Assembly (NCBI RefSeq): GCF_036321535.1
Contig: NC_087436.1
Coordinates: forward strand, 29,452,001-29,516,000
Source: Camelus dromedarius
Taxonomy: Eukaryota
Direction of reading: 5' to 3'
DNA: 64,000 bases
The translations under genes were made by a program, and so were the position numbers. The notes below the pieces were generated by a model. That model was not told the DNA's origin. It did not search any database and was given only the letters and a program-made list of their open reading frames with translations. This document shows positions 7,330 through 56,983 of this stretch, one piece after another; position 1 is the first letter of the stretch; each line of letters starts with the position of its first letter.

Positions 7330-8900
7330 TTAAGTGTGAAACTGAAGATTAAACTTTCTCTTCCCGCACATATCCAGTGTCATGTTTTGAAGACTACTCC
7401 TGTGTTCCATTCTAGGTGAGTGTGATCAAGAAGACTAGGGTTTTCTCTGTCCCCTCCACAAACCCCAGTCTAACACTACAGTTTCACTTCATAAGAGCAG
7501 ATGAAAGGTTTCTCATCCCAAACAAGGCCCATGTTGGAACAGCTTTATTCCATGCAGATATGGCCAAAAAGACCCAGGCTCCCTTTACCAGCCCAAACCT
7601 GTACACTTAGAGAAGAGGCTCTGCCTCAGGAGCCATAGGCTGAAATACTGAGCAGTGATTGCCCCCAACCCTGTCACAGCCTCAGTCCATTCGTAGAGCA
7701 GAGGTCCCACCCAAAGAGGGGTGGTGGACTACACCCCACAAGCCTACAAGGCCCCTAGTGGCCCAGCTTCAACAAGGAAGAAAGAGCCTGGAGTCAGTGA
7801 CAGAGGCATCAGTGGTTTAGCGGATAGGAGGATCTTAATGTGCCTGAAGCAAGGTCTTGGCATGACTCACCACCGTGTGTGCTGGACGGGTGGCCAGGAC
7901 ATGGTGGCAAGGGGCGGCAAGGTTAACAGTTACGGGGGAATTGACGTTAGGTTGGCTCATTGGTTACCACGGAAACCATCAGAGGCACACGCCCTTCACC
8001 TCCCCTTTGATAAGAAAAATCACCAGCTGGGCTTGGGGCAAGTAGGTAGGAAGGTCAGTCCTGCGAGTAGGGTGTAGGTGAAGTAGGCACTGGTCGAGCA
8101 GGGGGTGTACAGAGAGCGAGAGAACAGCCATCTTGAGTGGCCTGACCATACAAGGAGGCAAGCTAAGAAGACCAGGAGCTACCACACAGCCCAGAGCTTG
8201 CTCGTAGACCATGGATGGGTGTCACTCTGGGAGAAGCCAGCTGCTGTCCCTAGCACAGAGTTTCCTCCTAATGGGGGGACAGGCCATAAAGACAAGGAGC
8301 TCCACTGTCTTGCTTGAGGATATTGACTTTATATGGAGCACAGCTGGAAGAATGTCATGCCTAAGACCACTGCTGAAGAGAATGGAGACATTGGTGGAGA
8401 GCAGTTCAGAGGGTATGAGTGGCTCCATGAAACTGAGAGCAACAAGCAGGACAGCAGAACACCCAGAAGTTTAACAGGAACAAGCAGGGGAGAACCCACG
8501 GAGAATACAGCCATGGAGAACCCTCCTGGGATTACAGACAACCTTGAGTTGGGGAATTCTATGCATGTACCAGACTGAACAGAAGGACAGGGGCAGACTG
8601 AAAGCTTTTGCCAAGCTGCAAACCGATCATCAAATAGTAGAAACCTCACTGGCACAACATCTTAAGCAAAACTTCTGGCCAACACAAGCTGAACAATAAG
8701 CCACACTGATCCAGAGACAACTTCTAAGACAGCAGATTATAAAATAAAATCCCATGCTTCCCTGGCTGTCTGAAGACTGTATGGGTGGCTATGGGTATAT
8801 CCTCTCAGAAGCACTTAGAGAAGGAAATTCCAAGCTACAAGGCCTGCTTGAATGTGGGCAAAAACATACACATTCTGAATTATGATAACAATCTACCAGT
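7330..8900 (+). mobile_element. old L1M-type 5' region, interrupted by a solo LTR
   Basis: GC-richer block resembling ancient L1M 5' UTRs (ggcaagctaagaagaccag, gagagcaacaagc, ccctcctggg). Boundaries approximate. Confidence 0.5.
7722..8152 (-). mobile_element. ERV solo LTR (~431 bp)
   Basis: Minus strand starts TGtatggtcaggccactcaagatggc and ends ...gtagtccacCA. Flanks agggg (7717-7721) and aggag (8153-8157) form a 5-bp TSD with 1 mismatch. CCAAT box at 7959-7963. Confidence 0.8.
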
Positions 8901-9583
8901 CACACACAAACCTCCAAACAAACAAGGGATACAATGGATGCTATAGAAACAATGATCCTGCCTTAGATCCTTTGGCTCATAAGCCATTGACTTACATTCT
9001 CCCTTTCAGATAAACAATTTAATATACCTATATCTATATGAAGCTCACTTATATGGCCCCTGACATGTGAAAATCTACAGTCCCATCGAGGCAGTACTAT
9101 AAGCAGCTCCAGGTGTAATACCTCTGGGTAACATGCGAGTCTCTTTATCAAGTCTAAATGTTCTTCAAAATAAGAGATTCTTCATACAGTTTGGGATCAC
9201 AATGTGTATGCCTTGTTCTAAAAAGCTAAATTAAAAAAAATACAAATAATAAAGAGAAATTTCAAAGTCACATAAAAATAAATTACTTACTGTTAATTAT
9301 CAAACTTTGAAATTTATTCCTAATAAGGTCTTTAATTTTTTAAAATGTATTCCTAATTAATTTAATAGTAAATATATGGCTTCACATTATCTATCTATAT
9401 GCTATTAAATTATCATATCTTCTTTCAAGTAAGTGAATTACCACATGATTTAATACTCAGTGATGGGAGAAATTTTCACATGTTGAGGTATGGGGAAGTC
9501 ATTCTGGCTTATACATGACTTGGATTGAACTTTATGTTAACTAGAACTGCCTGTCTAAATCTGCCAAACATGCATTGCACAAC

Positions 9584-23324: not shown

Positions 23325-25161
23325 TTTTTTTCCATCTTTTATGTTTTTAACACCTTTATTGTGGTATGATTCCTGTATAGTAAACTACATATATTTCAGA
23401 TGTACAAGCTGATGAACTTTGGTAGATGTATATACCAATAAAGCCACCCACCACTACAATCAAGATAGCTAACATTTCCATCACTCCTCAAGAGGTGCAA
23501 ATTTCAAATTCCCAGTTTATCCCTTCCCACCGTATTTACCCCTGGTAGCCATAAGTTTGTTCTCTATGTTTGTGAGTCTGTTTCTGTTTTGTAGATAAGT
23601 TCATTTGTGTCCGTTTAGATTCCACATATAAGTCATACCATATGGAATTTTTCTTTCTCTTTCTGACTTTGTGACAATCTCCAGGTCGATCCATGTTGCT
23701 GCAAATGGCATTATTTTATTCTTTTTGATGGCTGAGTAGTATTCCATTGTATATATATACACTACATCTTCTTTATCCAGTCATCTTTCAATAGACATTT
23801 GGGTCATTTCCATGTCTTGGCTGTTGTAAATAGTGCTGCTGTGAACACTGGGGTCCATATGTCTTTTCAAATTATATTTTCCTCCAGATATATGCCCAGG
23901 AGTGGGATTACTGAATCGTGTGGTAAGTCTATTTTTAGTTTTCTGAGGAATCTCCATAGTGTTCTCCATAGTGGTTTCACCAATTTAAATTTCTACCAAC
24001 AGTGTAGGAGGGTTCTTTTCTCTAATCCCATTTACCATTGCACCAAAAAGAATAAAATACCTAAGAATAAATTTACTGAAGTAGGCAAAGGACCTGTACT
24101 ATGAAAACTATAAGACACTGAGGAAAGAAATTGAAGATAATATAAACAGATGGGAAAATATAACATGTTCATGCATTGGAAGAATCAATATTGTTAAGGT
24201 GGCCATGCTACCCAAGGCAGTATACAGATTCAGTGCAGTCCCTACCAAATTACCAATGACATTTTTCACAGAGTTGGAAAAAAAACTGTTAAAATTGGTA
24301 TGGAAACACAAAAGATCCCCAACAGCCAAAACAGTCTTGAGAAAGGTGAATGGAACTGGGGGAGGGAATCACACTCCATGACTTCATACTATACTACAAA
24401 GCTATAGTAATCAAAATGGTATGGCATTGGTACAAAAACAGACACATAGACCAATGGAACAGGATAGGAAGTCTAGAAATAAACCCATGCACTTATGATC
24501 AATTAATCTATGACAAAGGAAACAAGAATATGGAAAAAAGACAGTCTTTTCAACAAGTGGTGCTGGGAAAACTGGACAGCTACCTGTAAAAGACTGAAAT
24601 TAGAACATTCTCTAATACAAAAGCAAACTCAAAATGGATTAAAGACCTAAATGTAAGACCAGATACTATAAAACTCCTAGAGGAAAACATGGGTAGAGCA
24701 AACTTGAACATAAATCACAGCAAAGTATTTTTTTCATATCAGCTCCTAAAATAATGGAAATAAAAGCAAAAATAAACAAATGGGATCTAATTAAACTTAA
24801 AAGCTTTTGCACAGCTAAGGATACCATCAATAAAATTAAAAGACAACCTAAAGAATGGGAGAAAATACCTGCAAATGATGCAACCAACAAGGGACTAATT
24901 TCCAAAATATACAAACAGCTCATACAGCTTAATATCAAAAAAAAACAAGCAACCCAATCAAAAAATGGGCAGAGCAGAGTACCTAAATAGATATCTCTCC
25001 AAAGGAGACATCCAGATGGCCAACTAGCACATTAAAAGATACTCAACATCACTAACTGTTAGAGAAATGCAAATCAGACCTACGAGATACCACCTCACAC
25101 CAGTCAGAATGGCCACCATTAAAAAGTCCATGGACGATAAATGCCGGAGAGGATATGGAGA
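23325..25161 (-). mobile_element. LINE-1 with 5' inversion (twin priming), bounded by a TSD
   Basis: Minus-strand 3' part at 23325-~24022 and plus-strand ORF2 part at ~24023-25167 ([31 protein letters not shown]). TSD aaaaggccacacctatttg (23306-23324) vs aaaaggccacatctatttg (25162-25180), 18/19 identical. Confidence 0.92.
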
Positions 25162-27429
25162 AAAAGGCCACATCTATTTGAATGTGCACATTGTTTTTTT
25201 GTTTTTTAGAAAATGCTTTTTTTATTTTCTGAAAAATTAGCCACATATAGAAAAATGCCTTTGATAATAATTTCCAGAAATAGTTTCAAGCAAGTATAGC
25301 TTAAGACAGTTTGGCTGGTGGGAAGCCAGATAGAAAGGTCTTTTTAATTTTTTTTTTTTTTTTTTACAGCTTACCTAGTGCATTATAAAAGCTTTAAACA
25401 AACTACTTTTCTCTAGTGTGGTGTTAAGTTTAAAAAAAATAAATTTACTGGGCAAAATAAATATTTTCAAGCAAATGATTTGCGAATCAGGTCCAAGTGT
25501 TAATCCAAGCTTTAATATTTCTAATTAATTAACCTTGGCTATAGCAGCTATAAGCTGCAAAGCTCGGGATTACTGGGTGACTTATCTGAGAGTAAAACAA
25601 ATCCATTATTTGAAGAAAATATCTTTAAAATGGTTGCTTAGAACCTACAAAAGCTTTGAAGCATGTTGATATAAAAATCATTCTCAAAAGCCATTTAATT
25701 CCCTTACGATACTAAAACCCACTCAGCTTAAAAAACAAAACAAAACAAAACAAAAAAACACTCAAACGTTAAATACTTGGAGATTAATCCCCTTGTCTTA
25801 AAACTCAAATTCAACCATTCTAGTGTTTGAACAGCAACTGAAGTAGAATACTCATGCAAACCAGAGGATACATTACTTTCTGGAGGAAAAGGATGTTGAT
25901 TGGGTTGGGACACTTGTATTTTTTACCTAACTTTCTAGAGAATTTTGAATTAGGCAGTGAAATAACTTTATATTTAAGTAAAAGCAAATAAATGCAAACT
26001 TCAGAGAAGTTTGCCTTTATGGAGCTATTAAGAAACTTATTAATTCTATGATTTTATATTTTTTTGAAATACAATTTCATATATTGAATTTACATAAAAT
26101 AATGGCAATACAATTTTAAAATAAAAGTGTATAAAATCCTGTCGGTTCTCATAACATGTATTTTAAAATTACTGATGACATTCTCCAAGAACTGTGGAAT
26201 ATAAATGCAGTGAAAATAAATCTGAATTCCTATTCTGCCTCCTAGTGTCACTTCAGTATAGCTTTAATTAATTTTAATATATTTGTGATATTATATTCCT
26301 TTCATAATCTTAAATTCCCAAAACTTGGAGAAGTTTTGAAAAGGCCCATGTTCACCTTTTAAATTAATGACAGTTTATAGGCAAATACAAATCCTTTAAT
26401 ATATGCATCCTAATATGTCTATATTTTTAACATTTTGGCTTAGAGTATACGAAGAATAAAATAGGAAAATCTGAAATGCTTACTAATGAGCATTAAGTAG
26501 ATTTTTAGATCACAAGTCCAGAAAAATGAGGGGAAAAAAAAACAGCATAAAGTAAATTGATGAATGGCAACCTAGCTGCAGAGCAGAGAATGATGAATTC
26601 TAAGCAGACAGTAAATAGTTAAAAATTCATGTTACTTTTATCTTAGAATCCTTCAACTTCTAACAATTTTGAGTTGAATTACATCTGGAAGTAAGGGCTC
26701 AATAGAATGTCACTAAAATACGATACTTTTTTTTTTTTTTTTTAAAGCAAGGAGACTTTCTAGATGTGCTTTCTGACACTATCTAGGAAAAAAAAAAATC
26801 ATCTCTCTCTCATTGCAGCACAAAGTTGCAAAGATAAAGCTTATTTTCTGAGCCTAAAACATAGAGTTAATGACCTAGATGATGCCCTCTGCAGCCCTTG
26901 TCTACTATTCAGACCCTAGCATTCTGGATTACTGGACATTGACATCTAGGTAAGATGTGGGAGTATTTTTTTGGAAAATCCAATCATTCCAGTAAGATTG
27001 AAAAAGAGATCTTACTGACACCTATTTTTCCAAAGAAACCACCCATCTAGATAATTTAGAACAGATCCTATCTAATAGCTTCCAAAATGCTTGTTAGTAA
27101 CTGTTAATTATGAACAGGCAACCAAAGATTATCTATGAAAACCCTCTAATCTGAAAGATAAAGATAAAAAGTAATAAAGAGAAATATTTAACTTGGAGGA
27201 TATAGTGACTGTTTGTGGCAGTGGAAATATCAAATACCCTTTGCATACAATTTGGATCAATCAAATCCAATTTTATGTTTGGGCAGTTTTACTTGGAAGA
27301 ATTAACATATTGAGTATTTCTTACAATATGGAACAATTAATATATTGAGCTTTTCATTTTCTGTTAGAGGTCTTCCAAAAAAGAGAGACAAATTAATTAT
27401 TTTTAAATGAAATAAAACTCATTCTATTT

Positions 27430-33598: not shown

Positions 33599-33609
33599 TT
33601 TCTTATCTT
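33599..33609. repeat. left target-site duplication of the L1 plus transduction unit
   Basis: tttcttatctt, identical to 36084-36094 (extends to 14/15 over 33595-33609 vs 36080-36094). Confidence 0.85.
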
Positions 33610-33625
33610 TTTTTTTTTTTTTTTT

Positions 33626-34134
33626 GTATTCAGTGCTGTTTATTATGGGAATTGCCTTTTTGGACATCATGGGATAGAGCCCTAGCCCCAATCAGAAAAG
33701 AACCAGAAGATTTCTCACATCTGTACTTCCTGTCCCATCTCAAGGGTTTGGACCTGAGGACTCAGTGGCAATGCTCTTGGCATGCCCCTGTGGCTGCAGT
33801 GTCCTCCCTGGGCACAAGGAGAAGCTCTCCTCATTTCAGTCATATCAGGACCAGGCTAGGCAGACAGTGTCCCAGAGCAGAAGGCAGGGAGGTAACCCTT
33901 CTGGTCCAGGAGGGTGGGACTGAACATCGGGCGGGGGCTCCTCCACCTCTCCTTTGGTGGGCGTGTGACTCAGCGGCGGTGACATCAGCCATGACTTCAT
34001 TCCCCTAGAGGAGAGACTGGGTGCAGACCATGAGCGGGGCTCTGGCTCCTGCCCTTCCCTCTCCACGTTTTGTCTCGTCGGGGACATTGTCGTGGTCCTG
34101 CTGTTGTTTTCCATACATCCTTTTCATCTTGCTG
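33626..34134 (-). other. L1 3'-transduced non-repeat genomic segment (GC/CpG-rich)
   Basis: Lies between the inner L1 poly(A) (T-run 34146-34157) and an outer poly(A) (T-run 33608-33625), inside the TSD. Composition differs sharply from the AT-rich flanks. Confidence 0.85.
33639..33644 (-). terminator. AATAAA polyadenylation signal used by the transducing transcript
   Basis: tttatt on the plus strand, 13 nt from the start of the outer poly(A) tract. Confidence 0.85.
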
Positions 34135-34145
34135 TTTTTCTTTTC

Positions 34146-36083
34146 TTTTTTTTTTTTAACATTTTTTTTTATTGATTTATAATCATTTTACAATGTGTCA
34201 AATTCCAGTGTTCAGCACAATTTTTCATTCATTCATCGACATATACACACTCATTGTCACATTTTTTTCTCTGTGAGTTATCATAACATTTTGTGTATAT
34301 TTCCCTGTGCTATACAGTGTAATCTTGTTTATCTATTCTACAATTTTGAAATCCCAGGCTATCCCTTCCCACCCTCCACCCCCCGGTAACCACAAGTCTG
34401 TATTCTCTGTCTGTGAGTCTATTTCTGTCCTGTATTTACGCTTTGTTTTTGTTTGTTTGTTTTTGTTTTTGTTTTTTTGATTCCACATATGTGCGATCTC
34501 ATATGGTATTTTTCTTTCTCTTTCTGGCTTACTTCACTTAGAATGACATTCTCCAGGAGCATCCATGTTGCTGCAAATGGCATTATGTTGTCGGTTTTTA
34601 TGGCTGAGTAGTACTCCATTGTATAAATATACCACCTCTTCTTTATCCAGTCACCTGTTGATGGACATTTAGGCTGTTTCCATGTTTTGGCTATTGTAAA
34701 TAGTGCTGCTATGAACATTGGGGTGCAGGTGTCATCCTGAAGTAGATTTCCTTCTGGATACAAGCCCAGGAGTGGGATTCCTGGGTCATGTGGTAAGTCT
34801 ATTCCTAGTCTTTTGAGGAATCTCCACACTGTTTTCCATAGTGGCTGCACCAAACTGCATTCCCACCAGCAGTGTAGGAGGGTTCCCCTTTCTCCACAGC
34901 CTCTCCAGCATTTGTCATTTGTGGATTTTTGAATGACGGCCATTCTGACTGGTGTGAGGTGATACCTCATTGTAGTTTTGATTTGTATTTCTCTGATAAT
35001 TAGTGATATTGAGCATTTTTTCATGTGCTTTTTGATCATTTGTATGTCTTCCTTGGAGAATTGCTTGTTTAGGTCTTCTGTCCATTTTTGGATTGGGTTG
35101 TTTATTTTTTTCTTATTAAGTCGTATGAGCTGCTTATATATTCTGGAGATCAAGCCTTTGTCGGTTTCACTTGCAAAAATTTTCTCCCATTCCGTAGGTT
35201 TTCTTCTTGTTTTATTTCTGGTTTCCTTTGCTGTGCAGAAGCTTGTAAGTTTCATTAGGTCCCATTTGTTTATTCTTGCTTTTATTTCTTCTAGGAGAAA
35301 ATTCCTGAGATGTATGTCAGATAATGTTTTGCCTATGTTTTCCTCTAGGAGGTTTATTGTATCTTGTCTTATGTTTAAGTCTTTAATCCATTTTGAGTTG
35401 ATTTTTGTACATGGTGTAAGGGAGTGTTCTAGCTTCATTGTTTTACATGCTGCTGTCCAGTTTTCCCAACACCATTTGCTGAAGAGACTGTCTTTATTCC
35501 AATGTATATTCTTGCCTCCTTTGTCAAAGATGAGTTGACCAAAAGTTTGTGGGTTCATTTCTGGGCTCTCTATTCTGTTCCATTGGTCTATATGTCTGTT
35601 TTTGTACCAATACCATGCTGTCTTGATGACTGTAGCTCTATAGTATTGTCTGAAGTCTGGGAGAGTTATTCCTCCAGCCTCTTTCTTTCTCTTCAGTAAT
35701 GCTTTGGCAATTCTAGGTCTTTGATGGTTCCATATGAATTTTATTATGATTTTTTCTAGTTCTGTGAAATATGTCCTCGGTAATTGGATGGGGATTGCAT
35801 TAAATCTGTAGATTGCCTTGGGCAGTGTGACCATTTTAACTATATTGATTCTTCCAATCCAAGAGCATGGAATATCTTTCCATTTTTTAAAGTCTTCTTT
35901 AATTTCCTTCATCAATGGTTTATAGTTTTCTGTGTATAATTCTTTCACCTCCTTGGTTAGATTTATTCCCAGATATTTTATTACTTTGGGTGCTATTTTA
36001 AAGGGGATTGTTTCTTTACTTTCTTCTTCTGTTGATTTATCGTTAGTGTAAAGAAATGCAACTGATTTTTGAACGTTAATTTT
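34146..36083 (-). mobile_element. young 5'-truncated LINE-1
   Basis: Uninterrupted ORF2 3' half, complete 3' UTR with aataaa, and poly(A). Confidence 0.98.
34419..36083 (-). pseudogene. LINE-1 ORF2p C-terminal 554 aa (end of RT, thumb/wrist, CCHC C-terminal domain), 5'-truncated
   Basis: The 509-aa ORF extends 45 codons upstream without a stop ([12 protein letters not shown]...[11 protein letters not shown]). Cys-rich motif [14 protein letters not shown]. Lacks the endonuclease and YADD core, so it is non-autonomous. Confidence 0.95.
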
Positions 36084-36094
36084 TTTCTTATCTT
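36084..36094. repeat. right target-site duplication
   Basis: tttcttatctt followed by ga, giving 5'-TCTT/GA-3', a variant of the L1 endonuclease consensus TTTT/AA. Confidence 0.85.
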
Positions 36095-37709
36095 GATGCT
36101 GTATCTTCCACTAACACTCAGTAGGCTTCAGTTTCAAGACCAAATGTTATAATTGTATTTGTTGGAAAAATGGAACATGATACTTTAGGTCTACAAGATA
36201 ATTCCCAACATACTCATTCCAAGAAGTACTGATTAAACTTCCAGTGGTGCAACATTCAAATCAGTATGGAAATGATATAATTTCATTGAGAAAAATTCTA
36301 ATTTCTATGCTAATTTCGTAAGACTGCACAACATATGTTCATTTAGGATATAGCCTTAATGGGAATTATAAAGACATCTACCAGCAGATTTTATCCCTGC
36401 TATTGACTCCTGAAGTGTTTGTTAAAAAAATATGGATAGCTTCTTTTTCAGGGCTGGAATTTGCTTCTGGAGCTTCAGAGTGGGGCCAGAATTTCTCATT
36501 TTTAAACTGACTTATTAAATTATTTAGCTTCTTATTTTTAGCAAGCTTCTTGATCTCTACTAAATCTGATGATTAATAAGTTGCAGAACCACTGTTTGAA
36601 AAAGTAAAAGAAATTTCCTGGTGTTTGTTCAGAGTATTAGACTTTTTTTCCCTGAATAATCGCCTTTATTCTAGTCCACTGGAGTGGATAAATGGCCAGA
36701 TACTGGAACTAAAATAAAATATCAGAAAAGGGTTTTATGTGTAACACTCAGGACTAGTTTGCTCACTGGGTAATAACCTTATCCAATAATTAGAGTGCTA
36801 GGCTTCCAATTCAGACCCCATTCCTGGTTAACTCTGAGTTTAAATAAGCTACCCAATGTCACTAAATCTCATTTTCTTTATCATTAAGATAAGAATTATA
36901 ATGATATCTTTCAGCAGGGAAGAGAATAAACAAATCAATACATGTTACAATATTTAGAATAGTGCGTGGTATATATAGAGTTAATTTTTTATAAACCATT
37001 ATTAAGTTTACTTTAATTATTAGTTATTTTTTAATTTTGGTAGTGGAAAACATACACAATAACCCAGAAAATTCCTATAGAAAAACAATGACATTCCTTG
37101 GTATAATCATAATCTCACAATATAGAAGTAGGGTCAAAAATACCCTCATACTGTGAAACAAAAGTAATTATCCTGGTTGGAATAAGTTGTAGGAATACCA
37201 GTCATTTCATATAAAAGCCCAATGAAGCAAGCAAATTAAAAAAACAAAACAAACAAACAAAAAACCAGAAAAAAAAGCTTTCCTTGGTCACACACTGGTT
37301 TCCCAATGAGACATGTGCATGAGTAGAGCAACACTTCTATTTTCTTGTTGTCAGTTACTATATAAAAATTTCTTTGCCAAAATTGTTAATTTGGCACACA
37401 ACATTCTTAAAAATATGAAGGCCTTCAGGCAAAAATAATAACAGATTTGTTAAAGTTAATGTACAAGCAGCCTGTCTTTTTCATATGAAACAAAATGACC
37501 TAAGACTTACACCTGAATAGGGTGGTATTGAAATCCAAGTTCCCAACTCCGATTCCAAAACTCTCTCTATTACTACAATTAAAAGAGAAAAAATTTTTAA
37601 ATGATTTCATTTGATATATCTTTCAATAAATGTTCTCTTTTCCGTGGTTTCTGTCACTGGAGCCAATAAAATTTTAATGTAGACTTCTTGTTTTTAATCA
37701 CTAATTATG

Positions 37710-38109: not shown

Positions 38110-38323
38110 ATTACTTCTATTTTTGGTAAATTTAATATAGTTAATATAATTTGCTTAATATCTTATCATTTTGATCTACCTTCTTAAATAGCATAAAAAC
38201 CTATTTTGAAAGAGATCATATGTAAGGATGAATATTAAATGAATGAAGGGGTGGAAGACTGGCAGTTGGTAGGTGGGAGATAATAGTATATTACGTTTTG
38301 AATGTAGGTGGATAGGAGGGATA
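38110..38323 (-). repeat. right arm of a perfect 214-bp inverted repeat
   Basis: attacttctattttt...ggataggagggata; 186-bp spacer at 37924-38109. Confidence 0.97.
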
Positions 38324-38454
38324 ACTCACAGAGAAAAAAATGCGACAATGAGTGTGTGTATGTCCATGAATAACTGAAAAATTGTGCTGAACACTGGAAT
38401 TTGACACAACATTGTAAAATGATTATAAATCAATAAAAAATGTTAAAAAAAAAA
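38320..38454 (+). mobile_element. very short (~135 bp) LINE-1 3' end with poly(A)
   Basis: gataactcacagagaaaaaaatg...aatcaataaaaaatgttaaaaaaaaaa matches the reverse complement of ~34150-34282, with about five substitutions, a 3-bp indel and an A-run length difference. Confidence 0.95.
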
Positions 38455-38461
38455 GAACTTA

Positions 38462-39055
38462 TGTATAAGTTGTTTACTGTGACCATAACAATTTGCTGCA
38501 AATTTAGAGGCTTAATATAACACAAATTTATTATCTTAGAGGTTGGAAGTTTTGTGGGCTTGGCTGGTATCTCTACTTCTTATTTCACAAGTTTGAAATG
38601 AAATTATCAGCAGGGTTGACCTGAGGGTGAATTCACTTCCAGACTCATTCAGGTTGTTGGCCGAATTCAGGTGGCAGGACTGAGGTCCTCGTTTGCTTGC
38701 TAGCTTTTGATTGAGGGTCATTCTCAGTTTGTAGAGACAGTGTGCACTCCCTGGCTCATGGCTGTCTTCATTTTCAAAGGAAGCAACAGTGGAGTAAGCC
38801 CCTCTACTTTTTAAATACCTGCTAACCTTCTTTCTGTGTATCTCTCTGCCTTATACTTCTGCCTCTCTCTTCTACTATTAAGGACCCATAAGATTATATT
38901 GAGCCCACCACAATAATTCAAGAAAATACTGGAAAATCTGAAAAGTCCCTTTTGTAATGTAATATAACTTGTTCTCAGGTTCTAGAGATTAGGACATAGA
39001 CATCTTTGGTGGGGTATGGGAGGGTGGGAACAGTAGGCATTATCTACCAATCTCA
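38462..39055 (-). mobile_element. MaLR (MLT1-type) solo LTR
   Basis: aaatttagaggcttaatataacacaaatttattatctta...gattaggacatagacatctttgg motifs. Confidence 0.8.
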
Positions 39056-53180: not shown

Positions 53181-55734
53181 AAATGTTTCCCTGACAGCTT
53201 TTGCAAACAGCTACATGCCCGAGTGATTCATCTTCAACAAAAAGGAACTATCTTGCAGACTCATGGAAAGGACTATGCCAGGTACTGTGGTATACAGGCG
53301 TCTGATGGCATTGTTCGTAACTCTGAGATACTACCACTGAGCTGAGTCAGAAATCCAGAATGCTAATTAAGAAGCTAATGGGTTCATGGGATCTGCTAAC
53401 CCAAGATCAAGCGAAACAAGAATTAATTACATAGAACTAAATAAACTGATGAAGGATTATCATAATTTTTTGTTTGGAACGTTCTTGTTGTTTTATGTTT
53501 GGAATACTGTTGATGTTTTATATTCTGTTTCCTGGCTATAAAGTACCTCTGTATGAAATCTGACATTCGTTGGGTGTAAAAAGCATGATGCAGTTTATTA
53601 CTGACTTATTATCATCATCACTTGATCACTTAATTTCCTCACTAGGGAGCAGCAAAACGCCTTCTTTTCTATCAATTACACTCAGCTGAGTCAGTAATAA
53701 GAATTGCACAGCTACTTTTACAAATGTTAAATCTGGTATGGACAAGTAAATGTTCTAAATGCCATGGTTACTGTATAGTTACTTCAATCATGTCTTTAAA
53801 TATTCTTTTAGTTTTCTCTTCAGACTGGTTTATTTCCGCTGAAAAAAATGGATGTGCTTAGAATTAGCCAATGCAATAAATTGAACTGGTCCCTCTCAGT
53901 TCATAAAATATTTCCCATGCCCTAACATGCCAAAATATTTTACCCTAGTGTTTTCAAAAACTATGACTTACCATGTTGCCAGAGGTGAAGAATTAGGTTT
54001 CTCTCTTGAAGAAGATAATAAAAACAAGCTGATGTTTTAAAATTTATGTATTTTAAAATCTGTGAAATCAAGTGTCAGTTCACATTGTCTGCTATATGTT
54101 ATCTTTCATATTAATAAAAAATTATCTGACATACTTATTCTTAAAAAATAAAATAAAACTTAGTCAAAATATTAAAGTTTGCTAAAGAAAAGCCATTCTA
54201 ACTTGTAACAAGTCCACATTTCCTTACATTTAATCACAATTCCCTCCACATCCAGAAGGCCATGTGCAGTGATTATGAGCCACAGTGGGGAATAAACTTT
54301 TTCTTTCACTCCACCAGCATTTTGTATATATTTTTTTCTTTAACCCACTTATTTATAATAGGCTTAAGGGAAGAATGGCTTCTCAGATATCAAAAGGCAG
54401 TGAAGCAGCTAACACAGAATTTCATAAGGTTTTTGCTGGGTGGTAGAGCAGCAATGGCTGCATAAGTGGAAGCACTGCTGGGTGCACCTGGCCTTTATCG
54501 CTGATTCCGGTGCACAGTTCTCTCTGGCGCATGGCCAGTTTTATAATCAGGAGACAACACAGAAGCTGCATAATGATGATTTTAATGATCATTTTAGGAG
54601 AGTGAAGTATTAACTGTTACTATCTTAATGTTTAATGATGAATTATAAATGATCATTCATCCTTTTAGAAATATATTTGAAATTCAGGTTCCAGTTCTTT
54701 CTAATGAGTAAATTAATCAATATTTTGTTTGGTATTACAGAAGATACATAAGGAATGGTTTTCCAGAAAAGTCTTTAAAATGAAGGAGAGTATTTTATAG
54801 AAGATAAGTGATGTCATTTTAATACTAGGAATAAAATTTAATCAATGTATGCATATGATTTTTAAATGCATCCCTAAATTTATTTTCGCTGTACACTATG
54901 CATTTTTGTAGTTAAAGATAAAAACACAGTTCTTACATGCTGCTGATGTCTTAACTTTAAAAAAATTATTAGATACAATAGCATGCTCACACTACATTTT
55001 AAAATATCTATAATTGTTAGCTTCAAGAAACAACTTTATTTCAATGTGACACCATGATAAATTTTTGAAAAGATTTATTTCAGAAATAAAAATAGACAGT
55101 AAATTTGGATTATACATTTCAAGTAATTATATAATTGAACAACATATATTGGACTAATAATATGATATTTACTGAATTACTTTTCTGATTTGAATGACAT
55201 ATTCATCATTTTTAAATTAACTTTTTTCATGAATAAGTTTTTTAAATAAAGTTACTTTCATTGAGTCTGCATTTGTGTGACAGATTTCTCTTCATATATG
55301 ATCAAAATCCCATCACCTGATTCTCATAATTCTCACTAGTAGTTAGATTCACGGATATTACTTACAGATCCTTCAGAAATTAGTCCAATAATCTTCAGTC
55401 AGATATGTAATTTGAATCTTAGTTTCCTCATCCCTAAATCAAGGGTGTAACTTATTTTCAAAGATAGAAGACAGATAGAAGACAAAGATGAAGTTACATT
55501 ATGTGAAAAAGCTTCCATGCCCTCTCTTTCCCCAACCACATGCACATAGACACACACACCTCCTACACGCATGTGAACATGTGCCCTCATATAACACACA
55601 TTTCTAAGCCTATCTCTCACTGTAAGTTTTACTTTGTGATCAAGGCAGGAAGTCTGAAGTGTAAAGGCTAAAAGGTATTTTCCTCTGATTTATTTTGCTT
55701 CCATTTTTCTTGTTCTTTTTCTTATAGTTCTTCA

Positions 55735-56983
55735 AGATTTAAATGTAAGACCAGAAACCATAAAACTCTTAGAGGAAAACATAGGCAGAATACACTCTGA
55801 CTTAATAGTAGTAATATTTCTTTTTTTGGATATGTCTCGTAAAGCAAAGAAAACAAAAGCAAAAACAAACAAATGGGACCTAATTAAACTTAAAAGTTTT
55901 TGCACAACAAAGGAAATCTTTGATAAAATAAAAAGACAACCTGCTGAATGGAGAAAATATTTGCAAATTATATGACTGACAGGGGGTCAATAGCCAACAT
56001 ATATAAACAGTTCAAACAACTCAACATCAAAAAAAAAAAACCAACAACCTGATTTAAAAATGCCAAAAACTACATAAACATTTTCTCCAAATAGGAAATG
56101 CAGATGGCCAACAGGCACATGAAAAGATGCTAAGCATCACTAGTCATGAGGGAAACGCAAATCAAAACTACAATGAGATACCAGCTCACACCTGTCAGAA
56201 TGACTATCATCAAGAAAGGATGCAAATAACAAATGCTGGCAAGGATGTGGAGAAAAAGGAACCTCTGTACACTGTTGGTAGGAATGTAAATCGGTGCAGA
56301 CACTGTGGAAAACAGTATGGAAGTTTCTCAAAAAACTAAAAATAGAACTACAGGACCCAGCAATTCCACTCCTGGGTATACAATCAAAAAAACAAAAACA
56401 CTAATTTGAACAGATATATTCACCCCGATGTTCGTAGCAGCATTAGTTACAATTACCAAAATATGGAAGCAACCTAAGTGTTCATCAACAAGTAAATGGA
56501 TAAAGAAGATGTGCTTTATATGCACACAATGGATAACTACTCAGCCATAAAAAAGAATGAAATTTTGCCTTTTGCAGCAATATGGATGGACCTGGATGGT
56601 CTTACGCTAAGTGCAATAAGTGAGACAGACAAACACTGTAATGACAACACTATAATGATATTATTTACGTGAGACCTAAAAAATAAAACAAATTAGTGAA
56701 TATAACAACAACAAAAAAAGACTCAGATATAGAGAACTAACTAGGGGTTACCAGTGGGAAGAGGAAAGGTGCGAGGGGCAATAAAGAGGTAGGGGATTAA
56801 GGGGTACAAACTATTATGTATAAAGTAAGCTACAGGATATATTGTACAACCCAGGGAATATAGCCAATATTTTATGATAACTATTAATGGAGTATAACCT
56901 TTAAAAATTGTGACTCACTATGAGGTAGACCTATAACTTTTATAATACTGTACATCAACTCTTCAATAAAAAATTTTAAAAAA
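55735..56983 (+). mobile_element. 5'-truncated LINE-1 of intermediate age
   Basis: Frameshifted ORF2 C-terminus (aaatgggacctaattaaacttaaaag, cccagcaattccactcctgggtata), full 3' UTR, aataaa at 56965-56970 and a degenerate A-tail. Confidence 0.95.

Follow-up and report, generated by a model that had tools for sequence, protein, structure and literature searches.

The closest described parallel to the insertion analysed here comes from the dog, in which 17 of the 18 transduced sequences carried by dimorphic LINE-1 (L1) elements were reported to map to loci without an adjacent L1 and were named 'parentless' (Halo et al. 2021, PMC7980453), and in a 2026 dog study just 3 of 27 transductions had a LINE-1 in the 50 bp upstream and the other 24/27 had none (PMC13141329). 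In the human L1 3' transduction families, as described in PMC6425141, the source element can still be found and has given rise to numerous copies. L1 and non-L1 sequence joined inside one target-site duplication (TSD) are also found in U6/L1 and other chimeras, those of the U6/L1 type being described with the cellular RNA 5' of the L1 (10.1101/2025.02.02.635956).

The insertion studied here occupies positions 33599..36094 of a 64,000-nt stretch of dromedary DNA (the window, meaning the whole stretch that was analysed) and is read on the minus strand. Like the 'parentless' transductions as reported for the dog, it combines an L1, an internal tail, a unique flank and a second poly(A) inside a single TSD, and its donor locus has no adjacent L1. 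The dog cases are dimorphic L1_Cf elements, read there as offspring of still-segregating active parents, whereas the present L1 is ~0.8% diverged, its junction occurs in both DNA sequencing runs compared (2/2), its parent is more likely to be extinct and its host is a camelid; because the dog L1s are dimorphic and younger, the rates reported for them serve here just as an analogy. With the human families as described it shares the hallmarks and the read-through mechanism proposed below, but a single offspring and no progenitor are seen here. From the U6/L1-type chimeras as described it differs in that the foreign part, an unspliced piece of antisense intron, lies 3' of the L1 and beyond its complete tail. 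A human lung-cancer transcript also joins L1 to FGGY (PMC9288060), the gene assigned below to our donor; that case is a chimeric transcript in human, nothing seen links the two, and we regard the shared gene as a coincidence. The 'ghost' L1s of PMC8219666, described as centromeric, are a different thing. Literature searches on camelid LINE-1 transduction and on FGGY with LINE-1 returned the locus in none of the matches listed; a table of camelid structural variants in a supplement could include the insertion. The insertion is thus an ordinary pattern, known from dogs, and what is new is the copy at this locus, without a traceable or active source and without siblings.

All parts of the insertion lie on the minus strand. 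It opens with one TSD copy (36084..36094), directly abutted at 36083, with zero extra bases, by the 5' end of a 5'-truncated L1 (34158..36083) that comprises the 3' part of ORF2 in an open frame and the 3' UTR. The L1's own AATAAA (34168..34173), beyond which the siblings end alike, appears to have been read through. It is followed by a first, internal poly(A) of 12 nt (34146..34157), interpreted as the tail of the presumed parent L1, and by a 4-nt linker, GAAA (34142..34145), which alignment with the donor places out of register and which may be part of a patterned tail, donor sequence minus 3 nt, or part of an inner duplication. The transduced segment (33626..34141, 516 bp) was identified by genome search and alignment as a copy of C14:27720932-27721447, within an intron of FGGY and antisense to the gene. 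Its AATAAA (33639..33644) is the first AATAAA or ATTAAA past the junction on the donor strand (position 1997 of the donor extract L002) and probably marks the end of the read-through RNA. The second poly(A) (33610..33625, 16 nt) begins 13 nt past this AATAAA, four of its As being templated and the remainder missing from the donor, and the 3' copy of the TSD (33599..33609) closes the structure. The T-run seen at the left edge (33608-33625) accordingly measures 18 nt, of which 2 come from the TSD and 4 are templated by the donor. The foreign part is therefore 3' of the L1 in the sense of one RNA, with a single TSD around both parts.

Every feature listed in the original prediction (TSD, L1, two poly(A)s and AATAAA) was recovered at its position, and the architecture that it claimed, an L1 3' transduction in which a TSD encloses an L1, a flank and a second poly(A) after an AATAAA, was borne out. 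The foreign GC-rich DNA was likewise present, although the homology to the donor reaches 34141 and not 34134 as first delimited. The GC content of the segment is 54.6%, versus 32.8% in the window, and only 0.4% of the window's 509-bp stretches are as high. The window has one other GC-rich island, at 7600-9000 (44-48% per kb, with a 56% peak), which may derive from an LTR or from the 5' region of an old L1.

The 11-bp TSD had been predicted to enclose both parts and to end at the nick site TCTT/GA, which is a common form of the L1 endonuclease target, and this was upheld. The 11 nt are the sole shared stretch of at least 8 nt between the two 61-nt junction regions and occur on the plus strand of the window just twice, at 33599-33609 and 36084-36094, with TCTT/GA on that strand at the 36084..36094 copy; in a chance control, 1 of 3000 random 30-nt stretches shared at least 11 nt with the left junction. 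The right flank of the insertion (36084-36700) is single-copy in the assembly.

Exactly one other copy of the segment was found in the assembly, at C14:27720933-27721447 on the plus strand of another chromosome (2/2 candidates scored), differing from it by 13 substitutions in 515 bp without gaps (97.5% identical). The claim that the segment had been copied from another, GC-richer locus was thus confirmed, the 1-kb bins over 40 kb of the donor region having 33-51% GC and mostly 40-45%. Copying ran from this locus into the window: the donor has neither a poly(A) nor a TSD, its four As being followed by unique sequence. Genome searches showed the donor DNA both upstream and downstream of the segment to be single-copy, so that the boundaries of the homology coincide exactly with the L1 tail on one side and the second poly(A) on the other. 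The sequence at which the segment starts resembles an endonuclease site; this motif occurs at 1.7-2.1% of positions over the 40 kb around it. A further AATAAA in the donor lies within an A-rich stretch (L002:1483-1500), probably by chance.

The host gene of the donor was named from protein matches. An exon 14 kb from the segment matches FGGY_N with an E-value of 0.00046, below the curated cut-off, and the same exon searched against the PDB matches a carbohydrate kinase (E 2.3e-18), while the TIGR01315 profile aligns with ten collinear exons on the minus strand of C14:27.47-27.76 Mb, placing the segment between the exons at C14:27735577-27735750 and C14:27709871-27709969. Together with the human FGGY peptide, which we take to resemble the product of the donor-locus exon, these matches lead us to name the host gene FGGY. 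The copied strand is antisense to FGGY and consists of ungapped intron sequence; the FGGY mRNA was therefore not the template, and a promoter from outside was required. A processed FGGY pseudogene was excluded, since the segment is ungapped antisense intron and not spliced sense exons. Elsewhere in the assembly, C2:84688301-84688911 (plus strand) matches positions 1-210 of the FGGY profile in one uninterrupted stretch that lacks introns but has an internal stop and shifts of frame, and is probably a processed FGGY pseudogene. A 163-codon frame across the segment matched no Pfam family, and Rfam gave zero matches in the window or the donor locus. APOBEC-type editing was considered and rejected: the copy shows GG-to-AG at 3 of the 13 differences in the segment, yet just 2 of the 15 private changes of the L1 part are G-to-A, neither of them in GG/GA context.

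The original prediction had further proposed that the segment tags its source element, possibly a recently active L1. A BLAST search with the complete insertion over the 40 kb that surround the donor, 20 kb to each side, revealed no young L1 and matched only two old L1 fragments of 70-72% identity about 16 kb away, the old fragments across the 40 kb ranging over 68-73%. The donor was also compared with contigs of four of the 24 listed sequencing runs, two of DNA (X11 and X12), one of RNA (X15) and X20. In X11 and X12, which come from different samples and studies and of which neither is flagged as a possible origin of the present DNA, the donor flank continues straight into the segment with no differing letter, and no piece leading from the flank into an L1 was present among the 20 contig pieces of the four runs, such contigs dropping rare alleles and showing presence rather than absence. 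Both DNA runs (2/2) contain in addition a separate 47-53-nt contig over the junction (L002:1500-1529), and in X12 its loose letters correspond to the A-tail and the linker; as this contig includes no diagnostic site, it establishes the presence of the junction in both animals but not the locus from which it comes. Unbroken low-depth contigs of the RNA run X15 span the donor and show neither a joint nor a tail at the AATAAA, RNA ends not being visible in contigs; at L002:1577 the run has the letter of the window copy on a contig spanning the donor flanks, so that at least one of the 13 differences looks like donor-side variation. X20 contributes two short pieces with the donor's letters at the three diagnostic sites covered and, because it has 1 difference in 319 bp, is too close for outgroup use.

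Sibling or orphan transductions were sought with the whole segment, with its first 70 bp and with the donor sequence downstream and upstream, and these searches returned the donor and the window copy alone (2/2 candidates scored). A search of the genome with the segment had been expected to return a near-identical copy directly downstream of a full-length L1, and possibly sibling transductions; the copy was found, with no full-length L1 upstream of it and no sibling. As no young L1 lies beside the donor in the assembly, and the contigs of the two DNA runs show it empty as well, the transduction is no tag of a recently active source, and that part of the original prediction is not supported.

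The L1 part is 97.8-98.6% identical to 29 sibling loci, all of which extend upstream of its 5' end, the set being a lower bound retrieved from the best 40 of 9303 candidates scored in a genome search. Going by its 3' UTR and by the chromosome-scale contigs, which are numbered up to C37, we take the family to be a camelid one. Over 1914 bp the L1 has 15 private substitutions (0.78%), the sibling mean being 10.2 with a range of 3-16 among siblings that were chosen as best matches. Because of these 15 substitutions, its description as young stands in evolutionary terms only. The ORF2 frame is open as predicted, with 563 codons from stop to stop, and is nothing special, since among the 29 closest siblings 19 or more are open over the same 1599 bases; it lacks the usual stop and runs 19 codons beyond that of most siblings, into the 3' UTR. 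A Pfam search of the ORF2 fragment matched no family, which is consistent with the loss of its 5' domains. No close relative with the private changes of this copy was present among the 29 sibling loci (best 40 of 9303 candidates scored), and no near-identical second copy was returned when the three siblings of the 29 with a distant A-run (L023, L027 and L031) were searched for mappable transductions elsewhere. Two further siblings (L012 and L030) have a second A-run ~15-20 nt past the L1 tail, possibly very short 3' transductions or patterned tails.

Other L1 sequence occurs in the window. A second, very short 3' piece of the same family lies at 38320-38470 on the plus strand (~135 bp plus tail, 92% to the insertion's L1; no end duplication of more than 6 nt was found), and older L1 fragments of 72-75% to the insertion's L1 lie at 23500-25163 and 55731-56633. 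In the former of these, two pieces of opposite orientation meet near 24015-24024, as in a twin-primed inversion. The eight listed candidate exon frames considered for a host gene of the window are L1-derived or unremarkable by eye.

We consider it probable (about 0.85) that the insertion arose in one retrotransposition event, by read-through from a parent L1 that was never fixed or was later lost, that is, as a 'parentless' 3' transduction. An active L1 would once have been inserted at ~C14:27720932, in the FGGY intron and antisense to the gene. RNA polymerase II would have passed the polyadenylation signal and the genomic A-tail of this parent and continued for ~516 bases, and the read-through RNA would have received its 3' end, by cleavage and polyadenylation, at the first AATAAA downstream. 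ORF2p would then have nicked the window at TCTT/GA and primed on the new poly(A); reverse transcription would have passed through the segment, then the internal A-tail and then 1.9 kb of L1 before it stopped, leaving the 11-bp TSD. The parent may have been polymorphic and its haplotype lost, or the element may have been removed by recombination between its duplications; either loss would leave the donor site empty, as it is today. A segment that ends 13 nt past the first downstream AATAAA and starts at an endonuclease-like site is what would be expected from an L1 that had inserted there and been read through. The product itself is an inert passenger, because it has no promoter and the 5' part of ORF2 is missing. 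Against this reading stand the parent L1, unseen in the assembly and in both DNA runs (2/2), and the lack of a sibling with the same tag; the GAAA linker, out of donor register, would also fit an inner duplication of 6-7 bp, and the A-rich junction is predicted equally well by template switching.

In a template-switch chimera there would be no parent at the donor: ORF2p would have primed on a polyadenylated antisense RNA of the FGGY intron and jumped, at an A-rich stretch yielding a T-rich cDNA end, to the poly(A) of an L1 RNA. We think this improbable, even though it agrees with the donor being without an L1 in the assembly and in two DNA runs, with A-rich sequence on both sides of the junction and with the existence of switching or ligation chimeras as put on record in 10.1101/2025.02.02.635956. 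The donor's AATAAA 11 nt upstream of the junction (L002:1483) adds that cleavage of an antisense RNA there could have yielded the segment as its downstream product, and a jump from the 5' end of such a product, a reverse-order chimera imitating a parentless transduction, is no better than a slender prospect. That AATAAA, however, is one of 6 on the strand in 3.5 kb and is followed by purine-rich and not U/GU-rich sequence. An antisense transcript would also be needed, of which there is no sign in the X15 RNA contigs (which cannot show RNA ends), and the chimeras described in the same source carry the cellular RNA 5' of the L1, which is the opposite order, whereas a lost parent accounts for the same facts via a common process. 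Were the template jump true, part of the published 'parentless' class may be misread as hidden active L1s.

Two nested insertions would have begun with an orphan copy of the segment with the 11-bp TSD, into whose 5' TSD copy an L1 later inserted at TCTT/AT with an inner duplication of 6-7 bp. The implied nick site is indeed endonuclease-like, and the final 6-7 nt ahead of the 5' end of the L1 are the same as the linker taken together with the two terminal As of the tail; however, GAAA follows the tail in 5 of the 23 siblings parsed (6 of the 29 remaining unparsed), so the match is cheap, and a 3-nt deletion relative to the donor explains the linker as well. As another insertion, close in age and identically oriented, would have had to enter a single 11-bp target with an unusually short duplication, and as the orphan copy would still require an antisense promoter at the donor, we judge this scenario very unlikely. 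Least credible, and largely refuted, is a DNA-level event or an assembly error, in which duplication, gene conversion or a misjoin set the segment beside the L1: nothing in its favour was found, and it is opposed by the non-templated poly(A) 13 nt past an AATAAA, by the TSD at an endonuclease-like site, by the 13 substitutions between the copies, by the single-copy right flank in the window and single-copy donor flanks, and by the junction piece (L002:1500-1529), which forms its own contig in 2/2 DNA runs.

The divergence of 0.8% in the L1 and 2.5% in the segment suggests that the insertion is roughly 1.5-5 million years old. At 2.5e-8 per generation and five years per generation, the values given in PMC8605555, the L1 would date to ~1.6 and the segment to ~2.5 million years. 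The two estimates appear to agree, since 13 differences were seen in the segment and 8.6-10.2 are expected over two lineages at L1 rates of 0.84-0.99% (P(>=13) = 0.10-0.23); the measured private rate of the L1, 0.78%, is lower than the rates used in this test and would make the excess in the segment slightly larger. A slower rate would roughly double these ages.

Within the segment, a CpG-containing cluster (33929..33999, plus strand) consists of a GC box and three bZIP-like cores (33966, 33980 and 33992) and is kept both in the donor (L004:75-102) and in the copy. The three cores fall within 34 bp, and there are 8-9 CpG per 250 bp compared with a local mean of 1.4-1.9, although further CpG peaks of 7-9 occur in the donor's 40 kb, and the motif patterns were picked after seeing the sequence. 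From its motif content, the cluster is possibly an intronic enhancer of FGGY that was copied intact. The copying put a CpG-containing bZIP-like cluster into an AT-rich region of another chromosome and, should the cluster function as an enhancer, would be a minor example of L1-moved regulatory DNA.

The parentless pattern described in dogs is thus found also in an older insertion, where it would point to an extinct parent and not to a hidden active one. Read as a parentless 3' transduction, the insertion would be a cleanly preserved relic of an L1 whose activity in the lineage dates back a few million years and of which nothing remains at its own locus; among camelids, its presence or absence could be used as a marker.
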